Positions 14,597 through 43,363 of a stretch of 64,000 bases of DNA are shown in pieces. The DNA comes from a virus. The notes below the pieces were generated by a model that was not told the DNA's origin, searched no databases, and saw only the letters and a program-made list of their open reading frames with translations. The first letter of the stretch is position 1. Every line of letters starts with the position of its first letter. Position numbers and translations under genes: made by a program. The stretch spans positions 7,266 through 71,265 of IMG/VR virus record IMGVR_UViG_3300030333_002628; one strand, 5' to 3'.

Positions 14597-16822
14597 CTAT
14601 AGCCAAGTAACGTTGCCTAACCCCTGCATTGCATTCTCCAATGGTTGTGACGACCAACCTACTAGGCTGTAGTAGGGGGTTATCTTATCCAAAATAAAAC
14701 GCTGACATATAATCTTGTAACCTACTTTAACAAATGAAATATCTTCTTCATTATCAAACGCAATATACTTTCCTTTATCATTTAAAGTAACCTTGAAGAA
14801 AGAACCCTTACCGTAACCCTTACCTAGAAATTCGTTAGACCAAGAAGCAGCAGCAGCATTACCTGACAAGACTTTGTATTCACTTAGATTCTTCTCAAGT
14901 TTACCCTTCATACTAAGCCTATCAATATCCATAGTTCCATTTACTGTAGACTCTATGATTTGGTTTAACTGTTGTGTTACTTCTTCTTCCTCTTTATTGG
15001 CAAGTATTCCGCCGATAACTTCACCCATTGCTTCCTTCATCACCGGAGGCATTCGGGATTGCTTCATCTCTATCCCTTTGACATAGAGTTTAGGTTCGTG
15101 CCACTCTCCGTCAGTCCATACCACGTTCCCAGCATATCTATTCTTTGCCATGAGCAACATACGGTCACAATATCTTTCATACTCTACCTCAATGGGGTGC
15201 ATATAGCCATTGATAATCCTAAGTTTCTCAAACCATTCTCCTGTTAAACCTTTATCTTCATCCACCACGAAGATACTGTCCGTGTGCCCATAGATAGTTT
15301 CCCAACCTACTCTTTGCGCTGCGCTTCTTAGCCTCTTGAGCGTTTGTCTTGAAGTATATGTTATTGCGCCCGCCACTTCTGGGTGATACATACCAAACTT
15401 AGAATCACCAGCAACACCATACATAGAGGCTACAAGAGACTTACAAGCAAATTGCATAGCATCCCAAGTCTCTGCATTTACAGGGTCATCTTGCTTTAAC
15501 TGTTTGTATTTGTTCCTCATCTTAGTCATCTTATCCATCTGAACTACAAGCATACCTTTGCCTTCTTTCAAAAATTTAGAGCCGTTGCCACAATCCTCTC
15601 CTTCTTCATCGTTTAGTTTCTCCCAAGAGATATTATACATAGCAGCGTTGCTGTGATACATCGCTTTGATGTCTAAAATACCTACGTTGTCATACACGCT
15701 GGGGTCTACTTCCATGATGTCTGCGCCTTCGTATGGAACATACTCAAACTGTGGCTTGGTGGGAATTCTCTTAGCGAACCAATCCATATCTTGTAATACT
15801 AGACAAGTAAACATCTTGGTAATAAATGGCGTAGTCTTTAGGTCACATTGCACTAGATGTTGCAGAGAAATATAGTGGTTGATTGCATTTACTTTAGCGT
15901 CTAACTTAGGTAGCAGCCTTACGTCTTGTCGGCAGTAGTGAACGTAAAGTGGTAAGTTAGTATAATAGGTATCGTGTCCGTCAGGTAACTCTACTTTCTT
16001 TTCTCCTAGAACTAATTCAGCAACGTCATCTAGTTTATAGCCCGACAGTTTACCGTTCTTTAACTCCCATAACTTAGAGAAAGCAATCATCAAATCAATA
16101 CAGTTCCTTCCTACAATTGGTTGTTCCCAATCCTTGTAACTGTAAACCAATCTATTATAGGGTGACATATATGACGCATGAAGACCTCTTGCCCTGCATC
16201 TTTCAATAATTGTTTTTATATCTGCGCCGACCACATACCAACCAGTAATAATATCGGGGTCTTGTTTCCTCATGTGCTTTAGGAAATGAGTCAGCATTTC
16301 TTTCTCGCTAGGGAAGGCTTTGGCTGGAATATCATAAGTGTAGTCACCAAATTTAGTTAGGTCTTTACTTTCCTTTAAGGACTTGTCTACAAACCACACG
16401 TATTCCTTCTCGGTGTAAGAATCATATACTACAATAACAGTTAGATGATTGGTGGTAGGATTCCATTCACAATCCAGATACCAAACCCTGTGTTCGTAGT
16501 TAGGAATTGGCTCATGTCCCGCTAGTAGTCTTTCAGACAAGACTCTATTAGTAACTGGTATGTTAGCCTCCCATGTTGGTATATTTGGGTGTGCCTGCTT
16601 GAAGTCATAAATGTCGTTTGGGTGTGAGACTATTATCTTAGTCAGTTCTTCCCCATACAACCCCACGTGACCTCTTTGTTTGTGGCGTGCATCAATGAGA
16701 TAGGAGTCTTGGTTCTGAACAAAGAAGTAAGAGTCGTAGGTAGTAGCGCTAATGCTACATCTCTCACGGTTCTCATCACGATACCGTATGTCAATACCTT
16801 TCTTAGTCCTAGTTACTATCAC
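14597..16822 (-). CDS. polB: Family B DNA polymerase with 3'-5' exonuclease
   Basis: ExoI YLDCE, ExoII-like GWYVVGADI, ExoIII YCRQD; polymerase motifs DIKAMYHS, KSLVASMYG, YGHTDS and KNRY. Confidence 0.97.
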   Translation of the reverse strand: MIVTRTKKGIDIRYRDENRERCSISATTYDSYFFVQNQDSYLIDARHKQRGHVGLYGEELTKIIVSHPNDIYDFKQAHPNIPTWEANIPVTNRVLSERLLAGHEPIPNYEHRVWYLDCEWNPTTNHLTVIVVYDSYTEKEYVWFVDKSLKESKDLTKFGDYTYDIPAKAFPSEKEMLTHFLKHMRKQDPDIITGWYVVGADIKTIIERCRARGLHASYMSPYNRLVYSYKDWEQPIVGRNCIDLMIAFSKLWELKNGKLSGYKLDDVAELVLGEKKVELPDGHDTYYTNLPLYVHYCRQDVRLLPKLDAKVNAINHYISLQHLVQCDLKTTPFITKMFTCLVLQDMDWFAKRIPTKPQFEYVPYEGADIMEVDPSVYDNVGILDIKAMYHSNAAMYNISWEKLNDEEGEDCGNGSKFLKEGKGMLVVQMDKMTKMRNKYKQLKQDDPVNAETWDAMQFACKSLVASMYGVAGDSKFGMYHPEVAGAITYTSRQTLKRLRSAAQRVGWETIYGHTDSIFVVDEDKGLTGEWFEKLRIINGYMHPIEVEYERYCDRMLLMAKNRYAGNVVWTDGEWHEPKLYVKGIEMKQSRMPPVMKEAMGEVIGGILANKEEEEVTQQLNQIIESTVNGTMDIDRLSMKGKLEKNLSEYKVLSGNAAAASWSNEFLGKGYGKGSFFKVTLNDKGKYIAFDNEEDISFVKVGYKIICQRFILDKITPYYSLVGWSSQPLENAMQGLGNVTWL

Positions 16823-17117
16823 CTAAATCACGTTCCTTGTGCCCACGTGACCTTGTAGGTATATTATGTTTGTTCAGCCATTGGTTTACTGCTGCTGGCG
16901 TGATTCCAAACTCCTGTGCAATATCAGCCATAGTCCTTCCACTAAGGTAGTTATCTCTCAACCATACAGGGTCTCTATAGTGCTTGGGTTTTGTTTTATC
17001 AATTAAAACAAACCTTACTTCATACTGGCTATCGCTGGCTATTCCCTCTCCTTCTACGCCATGCGTTATCATACCATTTATTGTATCTCTTACGTCTTCT
17101 GCTATCATACTATTCAC
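16809..17117 (-). CDS. HTH DNA-binding protein
   Basis: YRDPVWLRDNYLSGRTMADIAQEFGITPAAVNQWLNKHNIPTR is a classical HTH. Confidence 0.8.
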   Translation of the reverse strand: MNSMIAEDVRDTINGMITHGVEGEGIASDSQYEVRFVLIDKTKPKHYRDPVWLRDNYLSGRTMADIAQEFGITPAAVNQWLNKHNIPTRSRGHKERDLGDSN

Positions 17118-19094: not shown

Positions 19095-20588
19095 CTAGGT
19101 TCTCAACGGTATTAGGCAATTACTTCCTAGCACCAGAGAAGCAATCGAAACTGCACTTCTAATTGAACTAATAGTTACATCAAGAGGGTCTATGATACCA
19201 GCCTCAACAAAGTTAACTGTTTTACCAGTCTTAGCATCAATCCCGTATGTAGTATCAAAGGATGCGACTTCTTCAAAGCCTGCATTATCTAGGATTAAGA
19301 ACTTAGGCATCATAAATGCTCGCTGAATAATCAAATCATTATCTGGTTGACTACCAAAATAGTTCAGCAGAAGACCACCACCCGCAATAACACCATTACG
19401 CATAGCGGCTTTAACAGCATTAACAGCGTCATCTACTCGTTCCTTTGTCTCAAGTAGTTCTACTTCTGTATAGCCACCTACTTCAATAGAAGCAATACCG
19501 TTCTCTAGTCTACCTATTCTTCTAAGTAGTATTTCTTCTTCCCACTTGTTATCATCCTTCTTGACGTATTGTAACTCTTGATACAAAGTGTCAAGGTGTG
19601 CATCACAAACAGGTTGACTTACTTTAACAATTGTATTGTCTCGCTTAGACTCCATGCTTAGAATATGACCCATGCCGTGTTCCTCTACATTCGTTATGTC
19701 TCTATCCCAGAACTTACCATATAGTGGGCCTCCAACCATCGCTTGAATATCCTCTAGCCAATCTTCTTGTGACTTACCCATCTCTGGAGTCTTTAGCATG
19801 GCAGCGTTTACTTTCCCCTGCATTACATTGATTAGTAGGTTAGGTAGAATGCGTGGATTAATCTCGTTACAAATTATCAGAAGACCTCTGTTCTGTTTGA
19901 TACTCAATTCTAACGCTGGTAATAATTGGTCGAAAGATTGAATCTGGTCTGATACCAGAAGAACGTTAGACTCGTCCATATTACGTGGGAAGTGTGGGCT
20001 TAATTGTCCTGAATGAATCTCAAACCCGTTACACATCTTATAGGTAGTATCAAAGCCACTTCCTACTTCAACAGATACAACACCATCCTTACCTACTTTA
20101 CCCATTACTTCTGCTATCAAAGAGCCTAACTCTGGGTCGTTGTTGGCTGCGATAGTAGCAACATCAACCAATTGAGACTCATCTTCTATACTGATTGCCT
20201 GTTCCTTTATCTTCTCAATGATTGCCTCTGATTGAGACTTGATTTGATTAACTACAACATCAGGACGAACCCCTTCTGATATTCTCTCAAAGCCCAAATT
20301 ACAAAAAGCCTGTGCTAGAACTGTTGCTGTAGTAGTCCCATCACCACTAATAGTCTGCGCTTGTTCCGCTACTTGTTGTATTAATTCAATCCCCATCTGC
20401 ACATAGGGGTCGTTGTCGTGAACTGCTTTAGCAACAGAGACACCATCATTTAGAACAACAGGAGGCTTATCTCCTTCCCTCTGAATAATAACGGTCTTAG
20501 CAGCAGGGCCGATAGTTCCTTTAACTGCTGTTGCAACCTTGTTAACTCCTTGTAGAAGTTTCTCTCTCGCTTCTTCATCAGTTATCAT
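19095..20588 (-). CDS. groL: Group I chaperonin GroEL-like
   Basis: GVNKVATAVKGTIGP, NDGVSVAK, GDGTTTATVLA, VATIAANND, KERVDDAVNA, GVIAGGG and GIIDP motifs. Confidence 0.95.
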   Translation of the reverse strand: MITDEEAREKLLQGVNKVATAVKGTIGPAAKTVIIQREGDKPPVVLNDGVSVAKAVHDNDPYVQMGIELIQQVAEQAQTISGDGTTTATVLAQAFCNLGFERISEGVRPDVVVNQIKSQSEAIIEKIKEQAISIEDESQLVDVATIAANNDPELGSLIAEVMGKVGKDGVVSVEVGSGFDTTYKMCNGFEIHSGQLSPHFPRNMDESNVLLVSDQIQSFDQLLPALELSIKQNRGLLIICNEINPRILPNLLINVMQGKVNAAMLKTPEMGKSQEDWLEDIQAMVGGPLYGKFWDRDITNVEEHGMGHILSMESKRDNTIVKVSQPVCDAHLDTLYQELQYVKKDDNKWEEEILLRRIGRLENGIASIEVGGYTEVELLETKERVDDAVNAVKAAMRNGVIAGGGLLLNYFGSQPDNDLIIQRAFMMPKFLILDNAGFEEVASFDTTYGIDAKTGKTVNFVEAGIIDPLDVTISSIRSAVSIASLVLGSNCLIPLRT

Positions 20589-20597
20589 ACTAAACCC

Positions 20598-20840
20598 TCA
20601 ATCAATAATACAAATTAGATTATCTATTATAGTAGCGAAAAGCCCTTCTTCTATCTTAATAAGTAAATCATTCTCATCTGCGAGTATCACTATGTCACCT
20701 ACTTTAACTGTTGCAGATTCGTCAGCAACGCTGACAACCCGATACTGCTGTAATCCTCGCTGGATAATCAAACCAGACTGCGTCTGTTCGTTCTTGTTAG
20801 CACAGGGCCATAGTAGAATATAGTTACCTAAAGCCTGCAT
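20598..20840 (-). CDS. groS: Co-chaperonin GroES-like
   Basis: MQALGNYILL...TQSGLII mobile loop, VKVGDIV; directly upstream of groEL. Confidence 0.85.
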   Translation of the reverse strand: MQALGNYILLWPCANKNEQTQSGLIIQRGLQQYRVVSVADESATVKVGDIVILADENDLLIKIEEGLFATIIDNLICIID

Positions 20841-25485: not shown

Positions 25486-25728
25486 TTACCAACCTTTACT
25501 ATAAACGTAGTTCTGTAGGCTACGCATCTGACTCTTGGATAACCCCCAAGCCTCACCTACTGATTTACCTGTTAAACTATAACCACCAACAGACCAATCT
25601 ATCCCAGTAGATAGAATAACTGCTACTACTCCATCATCTTTCATTGCTTCTACTAACTTGGGCCATTCGTCCTTGTTTATCGCACGCGCATTAATGGTGT
25701 TCCTATGCCCACTTCTCCACCGCTTCAT
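25486..25728 (-). CDS. Hypothetical protein
   Basis: 80-aa ORF with ATGA overlap to the upstream gene. Confidence 0.55.
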   Translation of the reverse strand: MKRWRSGHRNTINARAINKDEWPKLVEAMKDDGVVAVILSTGIDWSVGGYSLTGKSVGEAWGLSKSQMRSLQNYVYSKGW

Positions 25729-26393
25729 GTTGCTGCCCCCTTTGGGTATGATTCTACGGGATAGCGCAGACTCTTTAATGCTTTCTTTCTGAATCTCTTG
25801 TTTCCGCAGAGAAAAATATACCTATGTTTTCTAGGTCTCTCTTGCATATAGAATCTGTCACCATACTTCTCTCGGATTAACTTACCTCTGTTTTCATGCC
25901 CCCTAAATTCATCCGCTATTGTTTGGCTGTGTAGGTGTTCTAGTCCCTTTATCTTCCAATCAGTTCTCTTTGCACTTAAACCAGTATAGAGAAAATTCGT
26001 GGCTTGGTAGACAATACCTAGATGTTCTTGTGAAGTATCAGCATAAGAAATAACTATTGCGTCTTGTTCTTCCTTCAATAACCGCAAACTTGCACCGACA
26101 AGAATGCTGGCTTCATTATGTAGATTATTCTTTAAACAAAGTCGGTTTAATTCTAACACTTGATGTTGGTAATCTTCCCCAGCCACGCCCTTCCTCAAGG
26201 TAGCGCTGAAAGGAGTTCCGTAAGTTACTACACCTACTAATTCTAATGTGTCTAGTTTGATTAAACCGTAAGCGTAAGTAACACTAGGCCATCTCTTAGC
26301 ATAATGGATATTTAATATGAAGTCTTCGCAATCACTTCTTTTAACAGGTATTACATCGTATTCTTCACGCATCATCCACAACCTCAAAATCAA
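25725..26393 (-). CDS. Mom-like GNAT-fold DNA modification protein
   Basis: HYAKRWPS, GVVTYG, LELNRLCL, VISYADTSQEHLGIVYQATNFLYTG and KHRY match my recollection of phage Mom-like adenine-modification proteins. Confidence 0.7.
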   Translation of the reverse strand: MILRLWMMREEYDVIPVKRSDCEDFILNIHYAKRWPSVTYAYGLIKLDTLELVGVVTYGTPFSATLRKGVAGEDYQHQVLELNRLCLKNNLHNEASILVGASLRLLKEEQDAIVISYADTSQEHLGIVYQATNFLYTGLSAKRTDWKIKGLEHLHSQTIADEFRGHENRGKLIREKYGDRFYMQERPRKHRYIFLCGNKRFRKKALKSLRYPVESYPKGAAT

Positions 26394-35483: not shown

Positions 35484-35763
35484 TTATTGTATGTGCGTAT
35501 CTGTGCAAGTCTTCCCATGATTCTAAATCACCTGCTTTAATGGTGAAATCATCTAGGTCGGCCTCTGGTTCAAAGATAATGGTTAAACTTACACCGAAAG
35601 AATGAGACTCAGGGGTTTCACTCTCGCCACCGTCCGCCGCTATCTCGTAAGCCACGCCGTTATGAATTCCTTCCCATCTCACGCGGTCTCCTCCTTGTTT
35701 ATCGTGTGCGTTGGGTCGGTGCTTATCTCCCAGCCTGACGGGGTATCGTAGGTCTTGGGGCAA
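35464..35763 (-). CDS. Hypothetical acidic protein
   Basis: Co-oriented ORF; start uncertain. Confidence 0.45.
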   Translation of the reverse strand: MPQDLRYPVRLGDKHRPNAHDKQGGDRVRWEGIHNGVAYEIAADGGESETPESHSFGVSLTIIFEPEADLDDFTIKAGDLESWEDLHRYAHTIIDNGGW

Positions 35764-35984
35764 GGCTCAATCTCCGTGTTCATTGGGCGCATCCAGTCGC
35801 GGTAGAACTTCCCGCCCTCTAGGGGGGATGGGTTCAGCCATGTCTTCATCTGGTGGTTGCTCGTCTTGTTATAGTAAGCCACTAGTGCCTCATCTATAAC
35901 CTGCGCCACTTCTGCCGTTCTTTCTTTAGTCATGTGGTGAAATGCAATACGCATTCTCCATAATTGGGGTTCTTGTTCCGCCAT
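35679..35984 (-). CDS. Hypothetical protein, first gene of the leftward transcription unit
   Basis: ATG 29 nt below TTTATTAAGGGGTATG. Confidence 0.6.
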   Translation of the reverse strand: MAEQEPQLWRMRIAFHHMTKERTAEVAQVIDEALVAYYNKTSNHQMKTWLNPSPLEGGKFYRDWMRPMNTEIEPCPKTYDTPSGWEISTDPTHTINKEETA

Positions 35985-35997
35985 AAATCCCAGACAG

Positions 35998-36013
35998 CAT
36001 ACCCCTTAATAAA
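35998..36013 (-). promoter_or_regulatory. Promoter class TTTATTAAGGGGTATG
   Basis: 29 nt above the ATG at 35984. Confidence 0.75.
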
Positions 36014-36135
36014 CCCACCGATTTACCTAGTGTAGAAAGTAAACCAGCATTATTTAAAGTATGTATTATTCTAAGTCTTAGGATAGCGGGTAAAGTAGAT
36101 TTGCTTTAGCGGATAAAGTAGGTCGGCGGAGGCGC

Positions 36136-36354
36136 TACCTACAAATTTCTTATCTACAAACCTTATCTACAAATGAAGTTATCTACAAATCACGTGGGTA
36201 TAAGTAGTTTGCTAAGGGTTTATGTAGTGGTTTTCTTATCTACAAAGAAAAATCCATTGCGTGCGTTCTAAGGCCGGAAAACGAAATCCAGGTCTCAAGG
36301 TAGCATCGCCGGGTAGTTCGCGCTCAGATTGCACGCCAGACGATTTGTAGATAA
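36136..36354. repeat. TTTGTAGATA repeat cluster 1
   Basis: 4 reverse copies (TTATCTACAAA) and 1 forward copy, plus degenerate copies. Confidence 0.95.
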
Positions 36355-36600
36355 CACCTATAAACAAATTTGTTGATAGGTAAGTGTAGATTCTGCACTA
36401 ATGGTTATTTTTGTAACCTAATGTAATGTATACAGCAGGTGTATTTTGCCACACTTAGTAACTTTTTAGTATTTAATGTTATTTTTGCACGAACTTTACC
36501 TTTTACACCAATTTTAATTTCAGATACCTAGTGCCTCTATCACATCAGGTAATTTTTCCTACATCTGGTGTTATAATTACACCGCCTCACTCGGCCCATG

Positions 36601-36746
36601 TATCTACAAAGTTGTAGATAATAAACTTAGCGGTTTACTTTTTGCACTAACTGTGGGCGCGAAGCGCAAGTGTGATTTCCAACACCTAGTGTAATTTTTG
36701 CACCGCCCCCAGGCGCGTAGCGCCTACCTACAAATTTGTAGATAAG
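36601..36746. repeat. TTTGTAGATA repeat cluster 2 (two palindromic pairs)
   Basis: TATCTACAAAGTTGTAGATA at 36601-36620; TACCTACAAATTTGTAGATAAG at 36725-36746. Confidence 0.95.
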
Positions 36747-36788
36747 GGGGGCGTGGGGTTAATATAGTAGGGGTGCGTAGGGTGAGAC

Positions 36789-37196
36789 ATGGCAATTGGC
36801 GGACATGGAACCATCAACCACTATACTGACGGTGAAACTAGAATAGTCATTAGACCACAACCTGTATTATACACGTTAAAGGAAGTGGTGGTAGGTATGT
36901 GGGACATTGACAAGACGACTGACTGGGATGACGAAGGTAATCAAACTGTTAAACTACACGAAACCCTGTGGCAAGGGACGATGGAGAGATACGGTAACAG
37001 GAAGGGTATGGTAGAATACCTATTAATTCACGTTTACGAGAATGCTATCAGGAACCCAGATTGGTGTCCTACAATAAATACTAACTCAAGATATGACGAA
37101 ATCCCCGATGGGTGCAGAGGTAGAATAGAAGACTTCGTTCTTAGAATAATGCCTACTCTACGTGGAGACAAGCACCCTCACAGGGAGGACGGCTGA
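36789..37196 (+). CDS. Hypothetical protein (island cassette 1)
   Basis: ATG 30 nt below TTAATATA; followed by a T-rich tract. Confidence 0.7.
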   Translation: MAIGGHGTINHYTDGETRIVIRPQPVLYTLKEVVVGMWDIDKTTDWDDEGNQTVKLHETLWQGTMERYGNRKGMVEYLLIHVYENAIRNPDWCPTINTNSRYDEIPDGCRGRIEDFVLRIMPTLRGDKHPHREDG

Positions 37197-37276
37197 AGCG
37201 ACTCACCAGAGACGGAGGTATTTTGACAGTTATTTTATTTTTCTATTTTATTTTTTATTTTTCACAGATATTTTTC

Positions 37277-37336
37277 TTTGTAGATAACCTATAACCAAAT
37301 TTGTAGATAAGGGCTTATCCACAAATTTGTAGATAA
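37277..37336 (+). repeat. TTTGTAGATA repeat cluster 3
   Basis: 3 forward copies plus a degenerate reverse copy, then a TTCATAAC box at 37350. Confidence 0.95.
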
Positions 37337-37378
37337 CCTGGCCGATGGGTTCATAACCTGGTAGGGGGTAGCGGTGGT

Positions 37379-37588
37379 ATGAGTGGCGAAGTAGACTGTC
37401 ATGCAATACCAGAAGAACTAACTTGTGTCCTCTGTGGTTTACCGATTAAAACAGACTGGGCGGGATGGAAGTATGGGCATAATGCGTTACCTGTTAAAGT
37501 AGGTCGAGCCTGTGATGATTGTCAGATTACTGTTATTCTACCTGCGAGAATAGGTATGATAATAGATACAGTAGGGGAGGAAGAATAA
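37379..37588 (+). CDS. Small Zn-finger protein (island cassette 2)
   Basis: CVLCG...YGHNALPV..GRACDDC...VILPAR; ATG 29 nt below TTCATAAC. Confidence 0.7.
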   Translation: MSGEVDCHAIPEELTCVLCGLPIKTDWAGWKYGHNALPVKVGRACDDCQITVILPARIGMIIDTVGEEE

Positions 37589-37590
37589 CC

Positions 37591-37767
37591 ATGATTCCAC
37601 ATCAGGTTGTATGTGATGGGTGCGGGGAGACTCACTTCCTAGATACTATAACAGAAGTAGTAGAATGGATGAGTGCCCACTACGATGCCTGTGATGACCC
37701 GAAGGTATACAAGAAACTCATAGTTAATCTAAAAGATAAACTAGAATACGAAGGGAGGTTAGAATAA
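37591..37767 (+). CDS. Small C2H2-like Zn-finger protein
   Basis: MIPHQVVCDGCG...WMSAHYDAC; GGAGG SD. Confidence 0.6.
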   Translation: MIPHQVVCDGCGETHFLDTITEVVEWMSAHYDACDDPKVYKKLIVNLKDKLEYEGRLE

Positions 37768-37769
37768 CC

Positions 37770-37919
37770 ATGAAATCATGTGAAGTAGACATTGATGACG
37801 ATTGCGTTGGTGAGGCAGAATATCTGGTCTTGGGCTTGCACACACGAAGATATTGCTGTGGCCCTTGCCTAGAACACGCGCCGGGCGATGTAGATATTGT
37901 TAACATTAAAGTAATGTAG
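37770..37919 (+). CDS. Small Cys-rich protein (49 aa, not in ORF track)
   Basis: Manual translation MKSCEVDIDDDCVGEAEYLVLGLHTRRYCCGPCLEHAPGDVDIVNIKVM; GGAGG SD. Confidence 0.6.
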   Translation: MKSCEVDIDDDCVGEAEYLVLGLHTRRYCCGPCLEHAPGDVDIVNIKVM

Positions 37920-37995
37920 TCAAAAAAACAGTTAAACTAGGTCAGATATTTTAATTTTTATTTTATTTTTCATTTTTTCACTCAAAAGGGGCGAA

Positions 37996-38064
37996 ATTTG
38001 TAGATAAGCCCCCAATATACCCAAATTTGTAGATAAGAGCGCTATATACAAATTTGTAGATAAG
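37996..38064 (+). repeat. TTTGTAGATA repeat cluster 4
   Basis: 3 forward AAATTTGTAGATAAG copies about 27-29 nt apart, then TTCATAAG at 38076. Confidence 0.95.
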
Positions 38065-38104
38065 AGAGCGACAGGTTCATAAGGTGGAGGGTGGTGGTGG
38101 TGTC

Positions 38105-38356
38105 ATGGCGAACTACCCAAGAGGGAAAAACACCGATACAATAAACCTAACACCAAGTCCTAGCGGATTCTTCGATATGCTATGGCTCATTGCTACTTCA
38201 AGTGAAAATGTAGGAGACAGGGAGTATGCTAGAAGAACGCTTAAAGCAGGTTACATACGTGGTTTAGCAAGTATACCAGATGACCTAGAAGGTAGTATAA
38301 CAGAAATGACAAGCGGGGAACCAATCGAAGATATGATTCCTGACGAGAGGGAGTAA
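38105..38356 (+). CDS. Hypothetical protein (island cassette 3)
   Basis: Start set at MANYPRG, 29 nt below TTCATAAG. Confidence 0.65.
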   Translation: MANYPRGKNTDTINLTPSPSGFFDMLWLIATSSENVGDREYARRTLKAGYIRGLASIPDDLEGSITEMTSGEPIEDMIPDERE

Positions 38357-38357
38357 A

Positions 38358-38525
38358 ATGGCACTATCAAGAAAGCACTTCAGAGAAATGGCGAAGGCTT
38401 GCGCTCGCCTCCCTGATGATGATAACAAAACAGTTATTGTAAACACGCTCGCTAAAATAAATGCTAACGCAAACCCCAGATTCCAGAGGGGGAGATTCCT
38501 AGCCGCTTGCTATAGGAAGGAGTGA
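38358..38525 (+). CDS. Small conserved phage protein (55 aa; SRKHF...NPRF...RFL.AC)
   Basis: Manual translation MALSRKHFREMAKACARLPDDDNKTVIVNTLAKINANANPRFQRGRFLAACYRKE. Confidence 0.65.
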   Translation: MALSRKHFREMAKACARLPDDDNKTVIVNTLAKINANANPRFQRGRFLAACYRKE

Positions 38526-38606
38526 CCGTTAAAGTAACTGGGATCGAAATAGTTTACCTAGTATTTTATATTTTTATTTTACTTTTTATTTTTATTTTTT
38601 CTTTTT

Positions 38607-38798
38607 ATTTGTAGATAATTTTTTATTTGTAGATAACGGCTATCTACAAATTTGTAGATAGGAGGATGCTGCGATTCTTATCTACAAATATTACCTGGCG
38701 GCTTATCTACAAATTATTATCTACAAATCTGAGCCTGCCGCTTATCTACAAATATTCATCCCTGCTTATCTACAAATGGATTCACACTATCTACAAAT
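38607..38798. repeat. TTTGTAGATA repeat cluster 5 with orientation switch
   Basis: 2 forward copies, the perfect 20-bp palindrome TATCTACAAATTTGTAGATA (38641-38660), then 6 reverse copies. Confidence 0.95.
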
Positions 38799-38865
38799 GG
38801 CTCGGAAGGCCCAAAAATGGCCTAAAATAACGGTGACTATAAGTAGCGGTGGCCTCTCACAGCAC

Positions 38866-39000
38866 CTGCCGACTTGTCGGCCTACCGAAATCTGGCTGGG
38901 AACAGTCAGAAGAACCCGCGCATCCTGATGCGTTTACAGCCCTGACAAAAAGGGGCTGAGGGGGACTTGACGCAGAAAGACGAGTCGGCGCTCTAAGGAG
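38866..39000 (+). ncRNA. Candidate structured 5' leader / cis-regulatory RNA
   Basis: Starts about 30 nt below ACTATAAG (38836). 11-bp closing stem 38868-78/38979-89 encloses three hairpins, one with a GGAA tetraloop. Ends at the AAGGAGG SD. Confidence 0.55.
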
Positions 39001-39009
39001 GAAAAACGA

Positions 39010-40551
39010 ATGGAAAACAGATATGTAGCCATGCGAACCATCCTACTAACCGCCCTGCTTCTCGCAGGGGCCGGAGTAGCGTCTGCCACAGATGACTCTG
39101 TGGTGGTCGAGAAGAACGCCGACATTGGGGGCAACCTAGATGCCTGCTCAGAAGATCGAGTGGTTATCACTCAGGCAGCCCTCAGACTGACCGATGAGCC
39201 GACTGTGTGCCATCCTAACGCGGACTGGAAAGCCCGTAAGAGGAGGCGCACTCTGGCCGCCAACAGTAAGGCACAGAAGGGGGCGCGAGTCCCCAAGAGC
39301 CACAAGCGGAACGGAGAATACCCCATCCGCAAAAACCTGTTGAATCGGCCCGCCGCCATGTCTGTCGCTGGCATTCAGCCAGAGTCAGGGATGAACGCGG
39401 AACAAGTGATTGAAGTCACCGGACTCGGAGACTGGCATTGCGAGAAGACCACGCAATATGCCCGAACCGGAGAAGTGTTGACGCTATACAATCAAACGTC
39501 TGAGGGACAGTTTGAGGCTGTTGAAATCCCCCAATATGAAGAAGTGGTGAACACCAAAGGCAACCTGCAAAGGCTGACCCGCAGAAGTGACACAAGGGTT
39601 CAATTCGGGCCTGTTGGAGACAATTACACCGTCCTCCAGCACTCCGATGCAATCCGAATGGTGCATGATGTGGTTGATGCCCTTGAACTGGACTGGGAGT
39701 ATGTTGGGACTGTTGATAATGGTCGCAAAATGCACGCAGCCCTACTCATGCCTGATGATGCTGCCTTCGCCCTGCCCGACTTCAATGACGGACAGGAGAA
39801 GTTACAGCAATACATCGGTATCACGAACCAGCATGACGGGAAGGGGGCATTCTCCTTCTCGCAGTTCGTGATGAGGATATGGTGCTGGAATCAGTTCGTA
39901 GCCACATTGGGCGCAGTCGGGAACAAGGGTAAGTCAGCCAACGCTGATGTGTCCTTCCGAAAGACGTTCAGGCACAATCAGCACATGGAAGCGAACATCG
40001 CAAAGTGGTCGCAGGTCATGGCGCTGACAACCCAGCATAACAGGGCTTACATCGAACTGGTGGAAGAACTGCTGGATGTGCCGATGGATATGTCTGAGCG
40101 CATTAACTTCTACGTGAACCACTTGGGCCTCAAGGGGCATCAGAAGCGCGTAGAGGCGGACGGAACTAACCCTTACGGGCTATCCACCAAGGGCCAGATA
40201 AAACTAGACACGCTGCTAGACTTGGAGACACAGGAACAGAACCAAGTCGGGCGCATGGATGGGACTGTCTGGCAGGCTGTTCAGGTGCTTCTTGACTACT
40301 ACGACCACGAATACCTCTACGATAAGCAGGGGGACGTTTCCTTGGCACGTGCAAAGGATTCGCTACAAGGTCGGGTGGCAAAGAGGAAGGTGCTAATCCA
40401 GAAGTGCGGATTGATGTCCATTCAGGACGAATCAGCATGGAAAGAGCAGGTGTCCTTCCACGCGCACCTAGTCGAGAAGGATGATGACCCAGAGGACGAC
40501 CCAGAAGCAGAGGAGAACGCGCTTCTGGATGCGGCCCTAGAACTGGCCTAG
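39010..40551 (+). CDS. DUF932 / TIGR03299-like phage-plasmid protein with N-terminal signal-peptide-like extension
   Basis: GLGDWHCEK, RRSDT....GPVGDNYTVLQH, GTVDNGRK, ITNQHDGKGA, MRIWCWNQ, RHNQ, GTVWQAVQ..DYYDH; AAGGAGG SD. Confidence 0.8.
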   Translation: MENRYVAMRTILLTALLLAGAGVASATDDSVVVEKNADIGGNLDACSEDRVVITQAALRLTDEPTVCHPNADWKARKRRRTLAANSKAQKGARVPKSHKRNGEYPIRKNLLNRPAAMSVAGIQPESGMNAEQVIEVTGLGDWHCEKTTQYARTGEVLTLYNQTSEGQFEAVEIPQYEEVVNTKGNLQRLTRRSDTRVQFGPVGDNYTVLQHSDAIRMVHDVVDALELDWEYVGTVDNGRKMHAALLMPDDAAFALPDFNDGQEKLQQYIGITNQHDGKGAFSFSQFVMRIWCWNQFVATLGAVGNKGKSANADVSFRKTFRHNQHMEANIAKWSQVMALTTQHNRAYIELVEELLDVPMDMSERINFYVNHLGLKGHQKRVEADGTNPYGLSTKGQIKLDTLLDLETQEQNQVGRMDGTVWQAVQVLLDYYDHEYLYDKQGDVSLARAKDSLQGRVAKRKVLIQKCGLMSIQDESAWKEQVSFHAHLVEKDDDPEDDPEAEENALLDAALELA

Positions 40552-40586
40552 CCCGGATCGAGTGAGTCCACTTCGGAACAACATAA

Positions 40587-40657
40587 GTCAGCAGGGGGGG
40601 CAGAGAATCGCCGCCCCTGTTGACCCACTTTCTGCGCGGTTTTTTTTCGGTTTTTTC
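40587..40657 (+). terminator. GC-rich hairpin followed by T-tracts
   Basis: GTCAGCAGGGG...CCCCTGTTGAC stem, then TTTTTTTT. Confidence 0.65.
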
Positions 40658-40659
40658 GC

Positions 40660-40986
40660 ATTTGTAGATAAGAAAATCCCATTTGTAGATAAGGATTTTG
40701 ATTTTATTTGTAGATAAGATTTTTATTTGTAGATAAGATTTTGATTTTATTTGTAGATAAAAATTTGTAGATAAGAGGAATTTTTATTTGTAGATAATTT
40801 TTTGGGAAATTTGTAGATAAGAAAATTTGTGTATAAAAATTTGTAGATAAGAATTTGTATGTAATAATTTGTAGATAAAAATTTGTAGATAAGATGGCGT
40901 AGCCTAAATTTGTAGATAAGGCTAGTGCTGTAAATTTGTAGATAAGAAGCCAGGTGAAAATTTGTAGATAGCCCGCTTATCTACAA
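40660..40986 (+). repeat. TTTGTAGATA repeat cluster 6 (densest)
   Basis: 14 exact forward copies, 2 degenerate copies and a final reverse copy, with spacers of 1-15 nt. Confidence 0.97.
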
Positions 40987-41021
40987 TTATTGCTTATAGG
41001 CAGATACCCATTCCGCTATTC

Positions 41022-41144
41022 ATGGCAAACGGAAACAAGCCTACGAAGCACAGCCAGAAACCGCCCAGAGTTACCTTCCTGATGGAAGTGACCTTCGATG
41101 AGCAGGGTTGCACCCTGCAAATCTTCGATGTGAGGAGGGTCTGA
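41022..41144 (+). CDS. Small hypothetical protein (40 aa)
   Basis: Manual translation MANGNKPTKHSQKPPRVTFLMEVTFDEQGCTLQIFDVRRV; ATG about 28 nt below TTATAGG. Confidence 0.55.
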   Translation: MANGNKPTKHSQKPPRVTFLMEVTFDEQGCTLQIFDVRRV

Positions 41145-41145
41145 A

Positions 41146-41583
41146 ATGGATAAGGACGCGCCGATATTCCGAGGAGAGAAGATCGAAATTCCTCAGCACA
41201 TGGTCGAAGACTACCTTCACATTCTGGAACTTGGCTACGGCAACCCCCACAGCCGAAACCCAGATGATACCGAGAAAATAGACGCTCTACGCATCCTCTT
41301 GGGCAGAATGACAATCCAAGAAGAGGCAATTCAAGAACTCTGCTCGGAAGTATTCGACAACCCCAACAGACACCCGAAACTCTACGAGAATGAGGAGGAT
41401 ATGAGGCACTACGACCTTAAGCCATTCACCGACCTATGGCTAATGTATGCGAGTGATTCCAAACTCTACGCATCACAGGGAACCCTAACAGACGCAGCAC
41501 TTGAGGCAGTTAAGGAATACGAGCCAGAGAGCGACATTGAGGCCCGATTTGCCGCAATGGTTCAGAGGGGAGGGGGTTATTGA
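41146..41583 (+). CDS. Acidic hypothetical protein
   Basis: 145 aa; GAGGAGG SD. Confidence 0.7.
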   Translation: MDKDAPIFRGEKIEIPQHMVEDYLHILELGYGNPHSRNPDDTEKIDALRILLGRMTIQEEAIQELCSEVFDNPNRHPKLYENEEDMRHYDLKPFTDLWLMYASDSKLYASQGTLTDAALEAVKEYEPESDIEARFAAMVQRGGGY

Positions 41584-41760
41584 ATGACGGAATTGAGAAT
41601 TGGTCTAATTACTTCCCGCTACCGAGTTTCCCATCCTCAGATTCGACATGACCCAGAGATGGCGGAGAGGGTCAAGAAATTCTTGGCAGAGAAGCAGAAG
41701 GAAGACCGAGATCGAATGTGGGCCAGATTCGCAGAGGAGTTAGACGGACTATTATCTTAG
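41584..41760 (+). CDS. Small hypothetical protein (58 aa)
   Basis: Manual translation MTELRIGLITSRYRVSHPQIRHDPEMAERVKKFLAEKQKEDRDRMWARFAEELDGLLS. Confidence 0.55.
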   Translation: MTELRIGLITSRYRVSHPQIRHDPEMAERVKKFLAEKQKEDRDRMWARFAEELDGLLS

Positions 41761-41769
41761 AAATTCTAC

Positions 41770-41816
41770 GGTGGCGGGGGTGTTTCCGTTCAATTTTCCC
41801 CCGCTACCAAATTTTT
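41770..41816 (+). terminator. GC-rich hairpin followed by T-tract
   Basis: GGTGGCGGGGG...CCCCCGCTACC 11-bp stem right after a stop codon. Confidence 0.6.
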
Positions 41817-41826
41817 CCAGGCTACG

Positions 41827-42040
41827 ATTTGTAGATAATTTTTGAGGCTACGATTTGTAGATAAGGCCAGAATTTGTAGATAAGAATTTGTAGATAAGAA
41901 TTTTAATTTGTAGATAATTTTTTCTTTTTTTATTTGTAGATAGGCGAAAATTTGTAGATAGGGGGCCAGGCCAGGATCGGCGGCCAAAATCGGAAAAAAA
42001 TCCTGCCTGGAAAATCGGCTGAATCCGTCCTTTGTAGATA
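41827..42040 (+). repeat. TTTGTAGATA repeat cluster 7
   Basis: 8 forward copies; the last is just upstream of TTCATAAG (42047). Confidence 0.95.
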
Positions 42041-42075
42041 GGACTATTCATAAGGGGCAACACTATCCCAGAGCC

Positions 42076-42807
42076 ATGCAATCCGGCAATGGAATGTTAG
42101 AAGTAGTAAAATTGAACGCAAAAATAGGGGCTGAAACGGCAGCCTTCCTCAGAGAGAACGGCATGGTGCTAACTAGGGCACAGAACGCCATTCTAGTGCC
42201 AGAGGAGGCCGCCCACATGATGCTCTCGATTGAGGGGCAGATTCAGGCCGTAAACTGGGCCAGAGAGACCCAGAAGAACGGCCTAACGCCAGCAGAGAGG
42301 CCCGACTGCGAATGCGGGGGACACCTGAACGCAGATTACGGCCTATCGGACAGAATTCCGACCTGCTCGCGCTGCCAGACCCCCAGATTCGCGGGGACTC
42401 GCTCAATCAGGGAGAAGGTCAGCCAGACCTACGAGCCAAGCCTGTCAGACCACGTAGACGGGTTCACCTTGGTGATTAGGGACGAGCCAAAGAGAAGGGC
42501 GCTCAAGAAGACCCAGAGCGAAAGGGGCGGCCCTTGGGAGACCCAGACCCTATTCTGTGGGGCAGCAGTCCGACTAAGGGGCTTCGGGGAACAACTGTGG
42601 GCCTTCACAGACAGCACAGGCCGCTATTGCGGTGAGGGGCTTCTATGGGCCTTCGGCGTGTCCCCTAGTGGCATAACGGGCATTGTGGCAATCCACCCAG
42701 CCCAGACCGCGCAGTTCGTAGGCAGGGTTCAGATGACAGCCGACCCCTTCGACCTACTAACCACAGTAGACGCACCCAGCGCACTAATCCGCACCTACTG
42801 GGGCTAG
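42076..42807 (+). CDS. Hypothetical Zn-ribbon-containing protein
   Basis: CECGG...CSRC; ATG 29 nt below TTCATAAG; GC-rich. Confidence 0.7.
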   Translation: MQSGNGMLEVVKLNAKIGAETAAFLRENGMVLTRAQNAILVPEEAAHMMLSIEGQIQAVNWARETQKNGLTPAERPDCECGGHLNADYGLSDRIPTCSRCQTPRFAGTRSIREKVSQTYEPSLSDHVDGFTLVIRDEPKRRALKKTQSERGGPWETQTLFCGAAVRLRGFGEQLWAFTDSTGRYCGEGLLWAFGVSPSGITGIVAIHPAQTAQFVGRVQMTADPFDLLTTVDAPSALIRTYWG

Positions 42808-42843
42808 TCAAGCCAAGATCGAAAGGCTAGAGGAAAACGTAAG

Positions 42844-42918
42844 GTCTGGGGGGGCAGAAGTCCCCCCAGACTGGGCAGATTTTCGCAGGGTCGCCACCCT
42901 GATTTTTTTGATTTTTTT
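42844..42918 (+). terminator. GC-rich hairpin followed by T-tracts
   Basis: GTCTGGGGGG...CCCCCCAGAC 10-bp stem between convergent genes. Confidence 0.65.
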
Positions 42919-42976
42919 CCCAAAAATTTTCATTACTACGACTTACCCTGGGGCTACCGGGTCGAAAAATTTTTTA

Positions 42977-43363
42977 CTAAATTTTTGAAATGGGCTTTAT
43001 TAACTTCCAATGCTTGATGTTATTCTTTTTGGTTGTCAGAACTTCGCCGTTTTTCTCACATATACGCATGAATGCACCTACGGAATACCCATTCAATTGA
43101 GTCCACTTCGGAGGAACCTTCTTGTTGGCGGCTTCGGCAATTTGTGATGATGTCAACCACTCGCCTTCTGCGAAATAAGAAGACAAAGCCCACTCTATTG
43201 CTTCCGCAAATACCGTTCTCTTATTGTTGGGGCCGTGTTTTCTAACCTTGCGGTCTTGTAACTCAAACTTCTTACCAGTTCTCCTATTGCGAGTCTGGCG
43301 CTTATTACGCCCACCGTATGGCCCCTTACCCCACTTACCTGCCACGTATAACCCTCCCGCCAA
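42977..43363 (-). CDS. Basic wHTH-like protein
   Basis: EWLTSSQIAEAAN...LNGYSVGAFMR...HWKL. Confidence 0.55.
   Translation of the reverse strand: MAGGLYVAGKWGKGPYGGRNKRQTRNRRTGKKFELQDRKVRKHGPNNKRTVFAEAIEWALSSYFAEGEWLTSSQIAEAANKKVPPKWTQLNGYSVGAFMRICEKNGEVLTTKKNNIKHWKLIKPISKI

Follow-up and report, generated by a model that had tools for sequence, protein, structure and literature searches.

Introduction

In the IMG/VR virus record IMGVR_UViG_3300030333_002628, a gene of the DUF932 family stands between two arrays of a short repeat that point away from it on either side, which raises the question of what these repeats do and which protein reads them. The stretch analyzed, in the following called the window, comprises 64,000 bp (bases 7266-71265 of the 71,265-bp linear record, which is rated complete by CheckV). 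The virus looks like a magrovirus-like archaeal tailed virus, a label that is drawn from gene content. Magroviruses infect Marine Group II archaea, for which a cultured host is lacking. A reading made from the letters of this DNA (the sequence-only reading) had proposed that the DUF932 protein, perhaps together with a structured RNA, recognizes the repeats as a self-contained module. Here, it is proposed tentatively, with a confidence that falls a little short of even, that the repeats are operator-like sites for a virus-encoded regulator, that a 243-aa protein is the best candidate for their reader, and that the DUF932 gene forms a separate, insulated cassette.

A 13-mer in every gap of a 6-kb block

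The 10-mer core TTTGTAGATA is found 46 times as an exact match in the 64 kb, as compared to 0.27 expected matches, and none of 100 shuffled sequences contained as many (the largest count was 2). Likewise, the 12-mer ATTTGTAGATAA gives 49 matches with at most one mismatch versus 0.68 expected. With its flanks, the consensus is the asymmetric 13-mer ATTTGTAGATAAG. All but one of the cores (45/46) lie inside 36151-42040, exclusively between open reading frames (ORFs), in eight clusters that fill every intergenic gap there (Table 1), and the 34 exact 12-mers of the 71-kb genome are all located within 5.8 kb, with none outside this block. The DUF932 bracket is thus one part of a region-wide pattern, and the notion of a self-contained module is not supported, as the same word stands in every gap of the 6-kb block.

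The local architecture described in the sequence-only reading proved to be correct in most respects. The orientation of the copies indeed flips at a perfect palindrome, given there as 20 bp (TATCTACAAATTTGTAGATA, 38641-38660) and in fact extending to 22 bp; the six reverse copies before the DUF932 unit and the fourteen forward copies behind it were found as described, the latter accompanied by two degenerate forward copies near 40825 and 40853 that were read by eye. The unit is GC-richer than its surroundings (0.54 in 39001-40000 vs about 0.40-0.44), its ORF belongs to DUF932 (see below), and the predicted terminator hairpin is borne out by its folding and the T-runs that follow it.

Throughout the block, copy orientation tracks transcription, with minus copies left of 36250 and plus copies beyond it; only the copies upstream of DUF932 and the two halves of the palindrome deviate from this rule. 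Spacing within the arrays is irregular (14-30 bp in the window, 17-40 bp in the related locus L119), so strict helical phasing is not required. Perfect head-to-head site pairs recur in relatives, and the promoter-proximal site is often an imperfect palindrome. This arrangement suggests that the protein sits on palindromes as a dimer and lines up in chains along direct repeats.

Table 1. Features of the array block and its surroundings (window coordinates).
Feature	Position	Strand	Comment
Four 13-mer copies	36150..36247	-	Upstream of leftward operon starting 35984
Forward copies 36343, 36734; near-palindromic pair 36601/36610; imperfect palindrome upstream of ORF 36789-37196 promoter	36343..36746	+	
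Three forward copies + reverse variant ATTTGTGGATAA at 37315-37326	37276..37336	+	Upstream of ORF 37379-37588
Three forward copies	37996..38064	+	Upstream of ORF 38105-38356
Two forward copies	38607..38636	+	Behind T-rich tract ending preceding transcription unit
22-bp perfect palindrome, two half-sites head to head	38640..38661		Repeat orientation flips here
Six reverse copies (plus left palindrome half)	38678..38798	-	Point away from DUF932 gene
TATA-like boxes CTAAAATA 38822-38829, CTATAAGT 38837-38844	38822..38844	+	Block conserved in L116, L023/L117
GC-rich leader with hairpins	38860..39009	+	AAGGAGG Shine-Dalgarno 38995-39001, 8 nt before ATG
DUF932 ORF, 513 aa	39010..40551	+	Signal-peptide-like N-terminus, disordered acidic-then-basic linker, core ~116-480
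G+C-rich terminator hairpin, then two T-runs	40587..40656	+	Hairpin 40587-40624, z = -2.6
Fourteen exact forward copies, spaced 14-30 bp in AT-rich DNA	40660..40971	+	
Inverted variant copy closing array	40977..40988	-	Just before TATA-like box of ORF 41022-41144
Seven forward copies	41827..41961	+	Upstream of 243-aa gene
Variant site CTTTGTAGATAGG, 4 nt, TATA-like box TTCATAAG	42030..42054	+	Box 29 nt before ATG 42076
243-aa Cys-rich ORF	42076..42807	+	Candidate reader of 13-mer

Promoter geometry and transcription

The small units of the block all terminate in a long T-rich tract, behind which come 13-mers and then a TATA-like box. At four promoters of the window, the core is followed by a gap of 13-14 nt, shortened to 6 nt in the case of the 243-aa gene, and by the box TTMATAW, from whose start it is 29-30 nt to the ATG. 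In L117 and L023, the promoter of the 135-aa orthologue exhibits a geometry identical to that of the window, and the leftward operon carries TTTATTAA 29 nt before its ATG. Archaeal promoters have a TATA box centered near -26, and together with the spacing of the TATA-like boxes this suggests leaderless or very short-leader mRNAs.

Besides a strong Shine-Dalgarno sequence, the DUF932 unit has a conserved promoter block and a terminator of its own, and the two boxes upstream of its leader are its putative promoter. Within the 7 kb compared, metatranscriptome contigs of at least 99% identity match 38962-40548 (two runs of one sample) and 42156-42318 (one run), which documents presence in an RNA library only. 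The small ORFs and the arrays are covered by no RNA contig, which is uninformative as contigs break at repeats.

Conservation of the bracket among relatives

Arrays of the word were found in four lineages, namely the window with L115, a fragment 99% identical to it; L116; G001, G002 and L117; and L030, L032 and L119. Among these, G001 (26.6 kb) and G002 (9.3 kb) were found by an IMG/VR scan for two nearby word copies, L030 and L032 were taken from relatives of the large terminase (TerL) with wide flanks, and a metagenome scan with the 243-aa protein family yielded L115, L116, L117 and L119 (a further hit, L118, is G002). In G001, 33 cores are located within 4.5 kb of the 26.6 kb, and G002 is likewise confined; both share the word of the window and display six copies one way, a DUF932 ORF of 533-555 aa and 12-13 copies the other way. 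L116 carries the word TTTTTGTAGATA, and its DUF932 of 441 aa stands between four reverse and 15 forward copies. L030 and L032, whose TerL is 82-83% identical, have the word ATTTGTTGGTAAG in 28-30 copies, with five reverse copies, a DUF932 of 321-337 aa and nine forward copies. In this lineage, which includes L119, AGA has turned into TGG in all 26-30 copies per locus with the layout unchanged. Such a change of the whole word within one lineage argues for a co-evolving reader. As a side observation, the window itself harbors at 36368-36379 a variant word, ATTTGTTGATAG, that is intermediate between the AGA and TGG types.

Hence, the flanking of DUF932 by inverted arrays, a central element of the sequence-only reading, is not a local accident: the mirror-image bracket recurs in all four array-bearing lineages at 30-37% DUF932 identity and survives the word change. 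Copy numbers vary by lineage (4-6 reverse, 6-15 forward), the largest array lies 3' of DUF932 in three of the four, and synteny is fixed in all of them, with no empty site found. DUF932 and the 243-aa ORF are the sole genes of the region common to all four lineages, the other small ORFs being lineage-specific. Between the window and G001/G002, DUF932 is 35% identical, as compared to 89% for TerL, 88% for the portal, 79% for an Mre11-like nuclease and 53-62% for neighboring genes; it is thus the fastest-evolving gene in the comparison of the window with G001, in which the word is identical. What was observed directly are the sites themselves, a placement and orientation that are not random, the way in which the sites are conserved and co-vary among lineages, and the gene content of the region.

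More distant relatives (L033, L037 and L038; TerL 73%) are without 13-mer arrays. In L038, a DUF932 gene is present in a co-directional gene row that is free of 13-mer arrays. The same contig contains at 6915-10333 a different repeat of promoter type, ACGCTTGCGACACA, whose six copies all lie on the gene strand and precede start codons, that of DUF932 among them, by about 40-50 nt. A tblastn search placed DUF932 in 229 phage records, of which six were inspected down the ranking (Abba, Pipefish, cr127_1, Jada, MenE and ctbg_1). None of these loci carries arrays; their genes are operon-packed with gaps of at most about 150 bp, and their commonest 10-mer reaches 2-5 copies vs 35 in the equivalent stretch of the window. 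The co-occurrence of arrays and DUF932 that the sequence-only reading had put up for checking therefore holds in 4/4 array-bearing lineages and breaks down in L038 and the six unrelated phages, and arrays that persist where DUF932 is gone were encountered in none of the four lineages. Judged from these comparisons, the arrays are a trait of one virus subclade and not of the DUF932 family. A degenerate three-copy pattern gave 77 stretches in viral contigs, of which only those in the four already known contigs are related; the rest and L006 share no protein with the window. Regarding the phage loci themselves, DUF932 lies on the minus strand within 1-3 kb of the right genome end in Abba, Pipefish and several Arthrobacter phages, and in crAss-like phages it adjoins dUTPase or dNMP kinase genes.

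The DUF932 protein and its leader

Assignment of the ORF to DUF932 is firm (Pfam PF06067, 83.9 bits at a cut-off of 23, E=1.9e-23, residues 200-447; phrog_1221, E=1.4e-31). A profile search retrieved 4343 representatives of the family at E<=1e-3. A family alignment of 123 sequences shows no variation at C292 and N294 (numbering of the window protein) and at least 90% conservation at R192, Q210, H275, D276, G277, R289 and H322; the window protein has all of them. The conserved residues (H-D-G, C-x-N, H) look like an enzyme active site. The structure model displays a confident core at residues ~116-480 (mean predicted local distance difference test, pLDDT, 74.6; predicted template modeling score 0.70), preceded by an N-terminal helix and disorder at 22-109. 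In three lineages, the N-terminal extension consists of a basic n-region, 13-16 hydrophobic residues, small residues and an acidic, then basic stretch; it is absent from the TGG lineage and from typical DUF932 members. Read by eye, this N-terminus resembles an export signal. Within the extension (residues 1-117 in the window, 39010-39360), the disordered acidic and basic stretch bears an ARVPKS / NLLxRP motif that is conserved in L023, L116 and L117.

Searches for a known fold gave little. Foldseek of the model against the PDB returned nothing at E<=1e-3 (top match, Whirly protein StWhy2, E 0.034), a VIA-wide fold search returned an unconvincing best Z of 5.0, and a PDB sequence-profile search returned nothing. 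The C-terminal domains of T4 MotA (Z 3.8) and TnsE (Z 3.7) were considered as DUF932 folds and dismissed as noise. Pfam gives DUF932 alone and no Rep-type or winged-helix domain, although a missing match does not exclude such a fold. Titles and abstract openings in the literature brought no functional study of DUF932 to light.

The structured RNA postulated for the leader fared poorly. The window leader folds better than its shuffles (z -3.4 to -3.7), whereas those of relatives (z -1.6 to -2.3) lie inside the range of coding tiles (-2.9 to +1.0), and an alignment of six leaders (A8) is conserved in the promoter-proximal block only. An Rfam scan of 35500-43000 gave nothing relevant at E<=1, the lone match being blv_FSE at 42841-42867 (E 0.35, below gathering score), and a tRNA search found none. 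A distinct RNA element at the leader is thus weakly supported.

Candidate readers

The 243-aa ORF, which contains a conserved RPDCxCGGHL...C..C pattern, is an orphan: seven relatives are present in databases, and neither Pfam nor PHROG gives a match. In the array-less L038 and L033, the ORF was not detected. Identity to the window protein amounts to 53-61% in lineages with the same core and 27-30% in the TGG lineage, a drop steeper than that of TerL (89 to 82) or DUF932 (35 to 31) across the same lineages. Upstream of the 243-aa gene, a variant site and the TATA-like box are separated by 1-5 nt in the window, L117 and L119, an operator-on-promoter layout that would be suited to autoregulation; L116 has reversed variant copies upstream instead of an abutting site. 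Six GGA-variant copies can be seen at 4840-4900 of L116, part of which are reversed and stand directly in front of the promoter of the 243-aa gene. An Atlas search with the 243-aa protein gave no match above 0.82.

A second candidate reader is the putative product of a 101-aa ORF (35679-35984, minus strand), the first gene of the leftward operon. By eye, an N-terminal strand followed by helices gives it a resemblance to ribbon-helix-helix (RHH) proteins; no RHH domain was detected by Pfam, and the ORF has no Pfam match at E<=0.001. Its G001 orthologue is 39% identical.

Proposed mechanism and competing explanations

According to our proposal, ATTTGTAGATAAG would be the recognition half-site of a sequence-specific DNA-binding regulator encoded by the virus. 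The 6-kb block would consist of short transcription units, each closed by a T-rich tract and opened by a TATA-like box that starts 29-30 nt before the ATG, with single or palindromic sites 13-14 nt upstream of these boxes and longer direct-repeat arrays in the remaining space. The regulator, conceivably the 243-aa Cys-rich protein, would act at the promoters of this variable early block and at its own promoter, where the site at the TATA box would mediate autoregulation. DUF932 would not be the reader; it would rather represent a conserved cassette with separate promoter and terminator. Read in the light of L5, whose asymmetric 13-mers halt transcription in one orientation only (PMC9283540), both arrays would face transcription leaving the DUF932 unit, and none would face transcription entering or starting it. 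By analogy with stoperators, the bound outward arrays could stop transcription leaving the cassette both ways, and the bound regulator possibly silences the neighboring units, with DUF932 staying free for expression. Binding of the sites by a protein, the identity of this protein, its action by repression or activation and the role of the arrays as polar insulators are what we infer.

Several points weigh against this proposal. The motif change coincides with the deepest lineage split, so co-variation cannot single out one protein. The phyletic argument relies on a single array-less lineage, and all relatives are contig fragments. Arrays without DUF932 occur in none of the four lineages, which leaves room for a direct link between DUF932 and the arrays. 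The model of the 243-aa protein is poor (pLDDT 61), its sole fold match, the MCM N-terminal domain (Z 2.3), is noise, and Pfam recognizes a DNA-binding domain in no protein of the region; the sole helix-turn-helix (HTH)-like ORF among the 85 scanned (16809-17117) falls below Pfam cut-offs, and a divergent repressor is still conceivable. Arrays of 9-15 sites, irregularly spaced at 14-40 bp, far exceed the need of an operator and would be equally in line with a role in titration, as an origin or in partition. G-rich Shine-Dalgarno-like runs just before the ATGs of small ORFs are awkward for leaderless promoters, and the RNA contigs give neither an expression ranking nor transcript ends. Finally, the idea of a polar roadblock is borrowed from a bacterial system and would have to carry over to an archaeal RNA polymerase.

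In a rival explanation along the lines of the sequence-only reading, the DUF932 protein reads the 13-mers and the gene forms with its arrays a self-contained replication, copy-control or partition unit reminiscent of an iteron-rep-iteron arrangement. This appears unlikely. Arrays also occupy every other gap of the block, and DUF932 occurs without arrays in L038 and all six sampled phages, although no genome with arrays and without DUF932 was found and the bracket has withstood both the low DUF932 identity and the word change. The 35% identity of DUF932 between the window and G001, where the word is identical and TerL is 89% identical, the export-signal-like N-terminus in three lineages and the invariant H, D, C, N and H that suggest an enzyme are likewise at odds with a DNA reader, as is the lack of a Rep-type or winged-helix domain or of a convincing fold match. 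Yet, palindromic half-site pairs stand alongside direct repeats, which recalls the binding of dimers to operators and monomers to iterons in iteron plasmids, and in unrelated phages DUF932 is found among DNA-metabolism genes (sliding clamp, dUTPase, ParB-like nuclease). As an origin, moreover, the ORF-free segment 36235-36750 is a better candidate than the DUF932 arrays. It shares 69% DNA identity with G001 over 564 nt, as compared to 39-55% amino acid identity of the flanking proteins, and combines three TTTTTGCAC repeats, AT-rich tracts and the cumulative GC-skew minimum with divergent 13-mer sites on both sides; it may constitute a replication origin or a non-coding RNA.

In another reading, the arrays could act at the DNA level, and not in transcription, as origin iterons (mini-ORB-like) or centromere-like sites for another viral or host binder, with DUF932 merely lying in between, to which we assign a small probability. 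Dense, oriented short repeats in AT-rich DNA whose orientation flips on either side of a central segment would be in line with such a role, as would the position of the 36-42 kb block at the divergence point of two gene arms and the cumulative GC-skew minimum. The RHH ParB of pSM19035 provides a precedent with arrays of a 7-bp repeat in mixed orientation, of which at least four contiguous repeats are needed according to excerpts of PMC9499535; the 13-mer repeats, however, are not contiguous. Furthermore, the sites keep fixed distances from TATA-like boxes and start codons that an origin does not need, and Pfam detected neither ParA/ParM-type nor Orc1/Cdc6-type proteins among the 85 ORFs. Such a role also sits poorly with the lytic life style without integrase that is inferred for Poseidoniales viruses in the excerpted text of PMC11706807, and no integrase was found by Pfam among the 85 ORFs. 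Alternatively, the sites might be functional and the bracket itself without function, i.e. a relic of an old inversion between inverted copies, the orientation of which was kept by descent after local duplication and loss. Inverted copies able to mediate an inversion are present at the array ends (40977-40988 and the palindrome at 38640-38661), and copy number and spacing differ between lineages, indicating that the arrays turn over by local events. The reverse copies, in contrast, are intact in all four lineages and have switched to the TGG word with the rest, which indicates that they are under selection as sites, and in three of the four lineages the largest array stands behind DUF932. This scenario, too, is improbable.

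Beyond the operator-like reading, a more far-reaching version can be envisaged in which a magrovirus subclade possesses a single unit of three parts, made up of the 13-mer arrays, the orphan 243-aa protein and DUF932. An orientation-dependent regulator bound to the DNA would serve as a polar barrier, with the outward-facing arrays fencing off a constantly expressed, fast-evolving and possibly exported DUF932 enzyme while the variable early genes in its vicinity are switched. As a whole, this version must be regarded as rather doubtful.

Three further candidates were set aside. The reverse complement, TTATCTACA, differs by one base from the DnaA box TTATCCACA, whereas the host is archaeal; a mimic of a Cas12a repeat would require a TCTAC...GTAGA stem, which forms only in the palindromes; and subterminal repeats of a transposon are at variance with the fixed synteny in four lineages and the absence of an empty site among them.

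Comparison with known systems

A close parallel is provided by the stoperators and operators of Cluster A mycobacteriophages (L5 gp71-type), asymmetric 13-mers whose copies number more than 20, are found in promoter regions as well as in short spaces between genes, and are oriented in correlation with transcription. The L5 repressor binds more than 20 such sites, site reversal abolishes repression, and stoperator function is orientation-dependent in these phages, as stated in excerpts of PMC9283540; the evolution of immunity specificities is the topic of PMC6550527, to go by its excerpt. The window shares the asymmetric sites of about 13 bp, their large number (45 in the block) and an orientation with transcription except upstream of DUF932. 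In contrast to L5, however, the sites are densely packed into tandem arrays that reach 14-15 copies, are restricted to 6 kb rather than spread genome-wide and are located upstream of promoters instead of inside operons. The host is archaeal, and neither an HTH repressor nor an integrase was found among the 85 ORFs.

Among archaeal viruses, the RHH proteins F55 of SSV1 and AvtR of AFV6 bind tandem repeats and oligomerize along the DNA, with AvtR spreading over about 100 nt starting at high-affinity sites (PMC5569661, in excerpt). As would be the case here, a virus factor acts on tandem short repeats at early promoters and its own promoter. These systems employ one or two sites of two repeats per promoter (same excerpts), as compared to arrays of 3-15 in the present case. 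In the halovirus HF2, an archaeal tailed virus, virus-specific intergenic repeats similarly mark transcription units and are conserved in position within the genus; these are single units of 58 bp and 29 bp containing the promoter (PMC8707807, in excerpt), whereas the 13-mer arrays are located upstream of a separate TATA-like box.

The RHH ParB Omega of pSM19035 also uses arrays of a short word, in both orientations and upstream of several promoters, and the one protein serves as repressor and centromere binder (PMC9499535, in excerpt). Its heptads are contiguous and ParA is required, as the same excerpts have it; here, the spacers measure 1-27 bp. A plasmid partition locus of type Ib/II combines a centromere array with a neighboring ParA/ParM NTPase and an adaptor; arrays are present here, and a ParA/ParM-family match was found in none of the 85 ORFs scanned.

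In the iteron replicons P1 (incC-repA-incA) and F (incB-repE-incC), a gene is flanked by arrays of its regulator's sites, with palindromic pairs and direct repeats. The DUF932 ORF is similarly flanked by direct-repeat arrays (six reverse and 14 forward) in four lineages. Unlike the P1 and F genes, it is without a Rep or winged-helix match, arrays are found at five other gaps, and array-less DUF932 genes exist elsewhere. For magroviruses, the literature searched describes no regulatory element, the term repeats in PMC11706807 referring to terminal repeats and assembly.

Genome setting

Pfam and PHROG scans revealed a morphogenesis set of a tailed virus (minor tail protein, portal, large terminase, cement protein and tail tube). 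The minus strand encodes a replication set of archaeal/eukaryotic type, namely a family B polymerase, an RFC-like AAA+ protein and a thermosome-like Cpn60_TCP1 protein, along with an ERCC4/XPF nuclease with helix-hairpin-helix motif, a PD-(D/E)XK nuclease and a Mom-like protein. The Pfam matches to DNA_pol_B, AAA/RFC lid, Cpn60_TCP1, ERCC4, portal and terminase correspond to a magrovirus-type gene set, and the same hallmark features are named for Poseidoniales magroviruses in the excerpts of PMC11706807. The thermosome-like chaperonin gene (19095-20840, minus strand) adjoins a weak Cpn10-like ORF (E 0.0027), and the Mom-family protein (25725-26393, minus strand; E 5.7e-39) suggests DNA modification.

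With respect to base composition, the highest GC contents at third codon positions in the window are those of the 243-aa ORF (0.69), the 101-aa ORF (0.66) and DUF932 (0.65), whereas the remaining 51 ORFs with a length of 80 aa or more reach 0.28-0.60. These three genes (42076-42807, 35679-35984 and 39010-40551) all border the array block and may share an origin or expression regime. A second repeat, TAGCGG(G/A)TAAAGTAG, is present in two direct copies at 36085-36125, flanked by the 13-mer cluster on one side and by the leftward operon's TATA-like box on the other, and may be the site of another factor.

Implications

Taken together, a conserved cis-element that varies between lineages and two conserved partner genes provide an entry point for in vitro work, and the two natural words (AGA and TGG) permit a specificity-swap test. 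DUF932 is a large family, the function of which is not known, and its conspicuous setting in these viruses may help to assign a role. A polar barrier, if true, would mean that orientation-dependent repressor sites, as known from mycobacteriophages, also work with the archaeal transcription machinery. If the three-part polar unit is true, stoperator-like polar control would be known for the first time from an archaeal virus, and DUF932 would have gained its first functional context.

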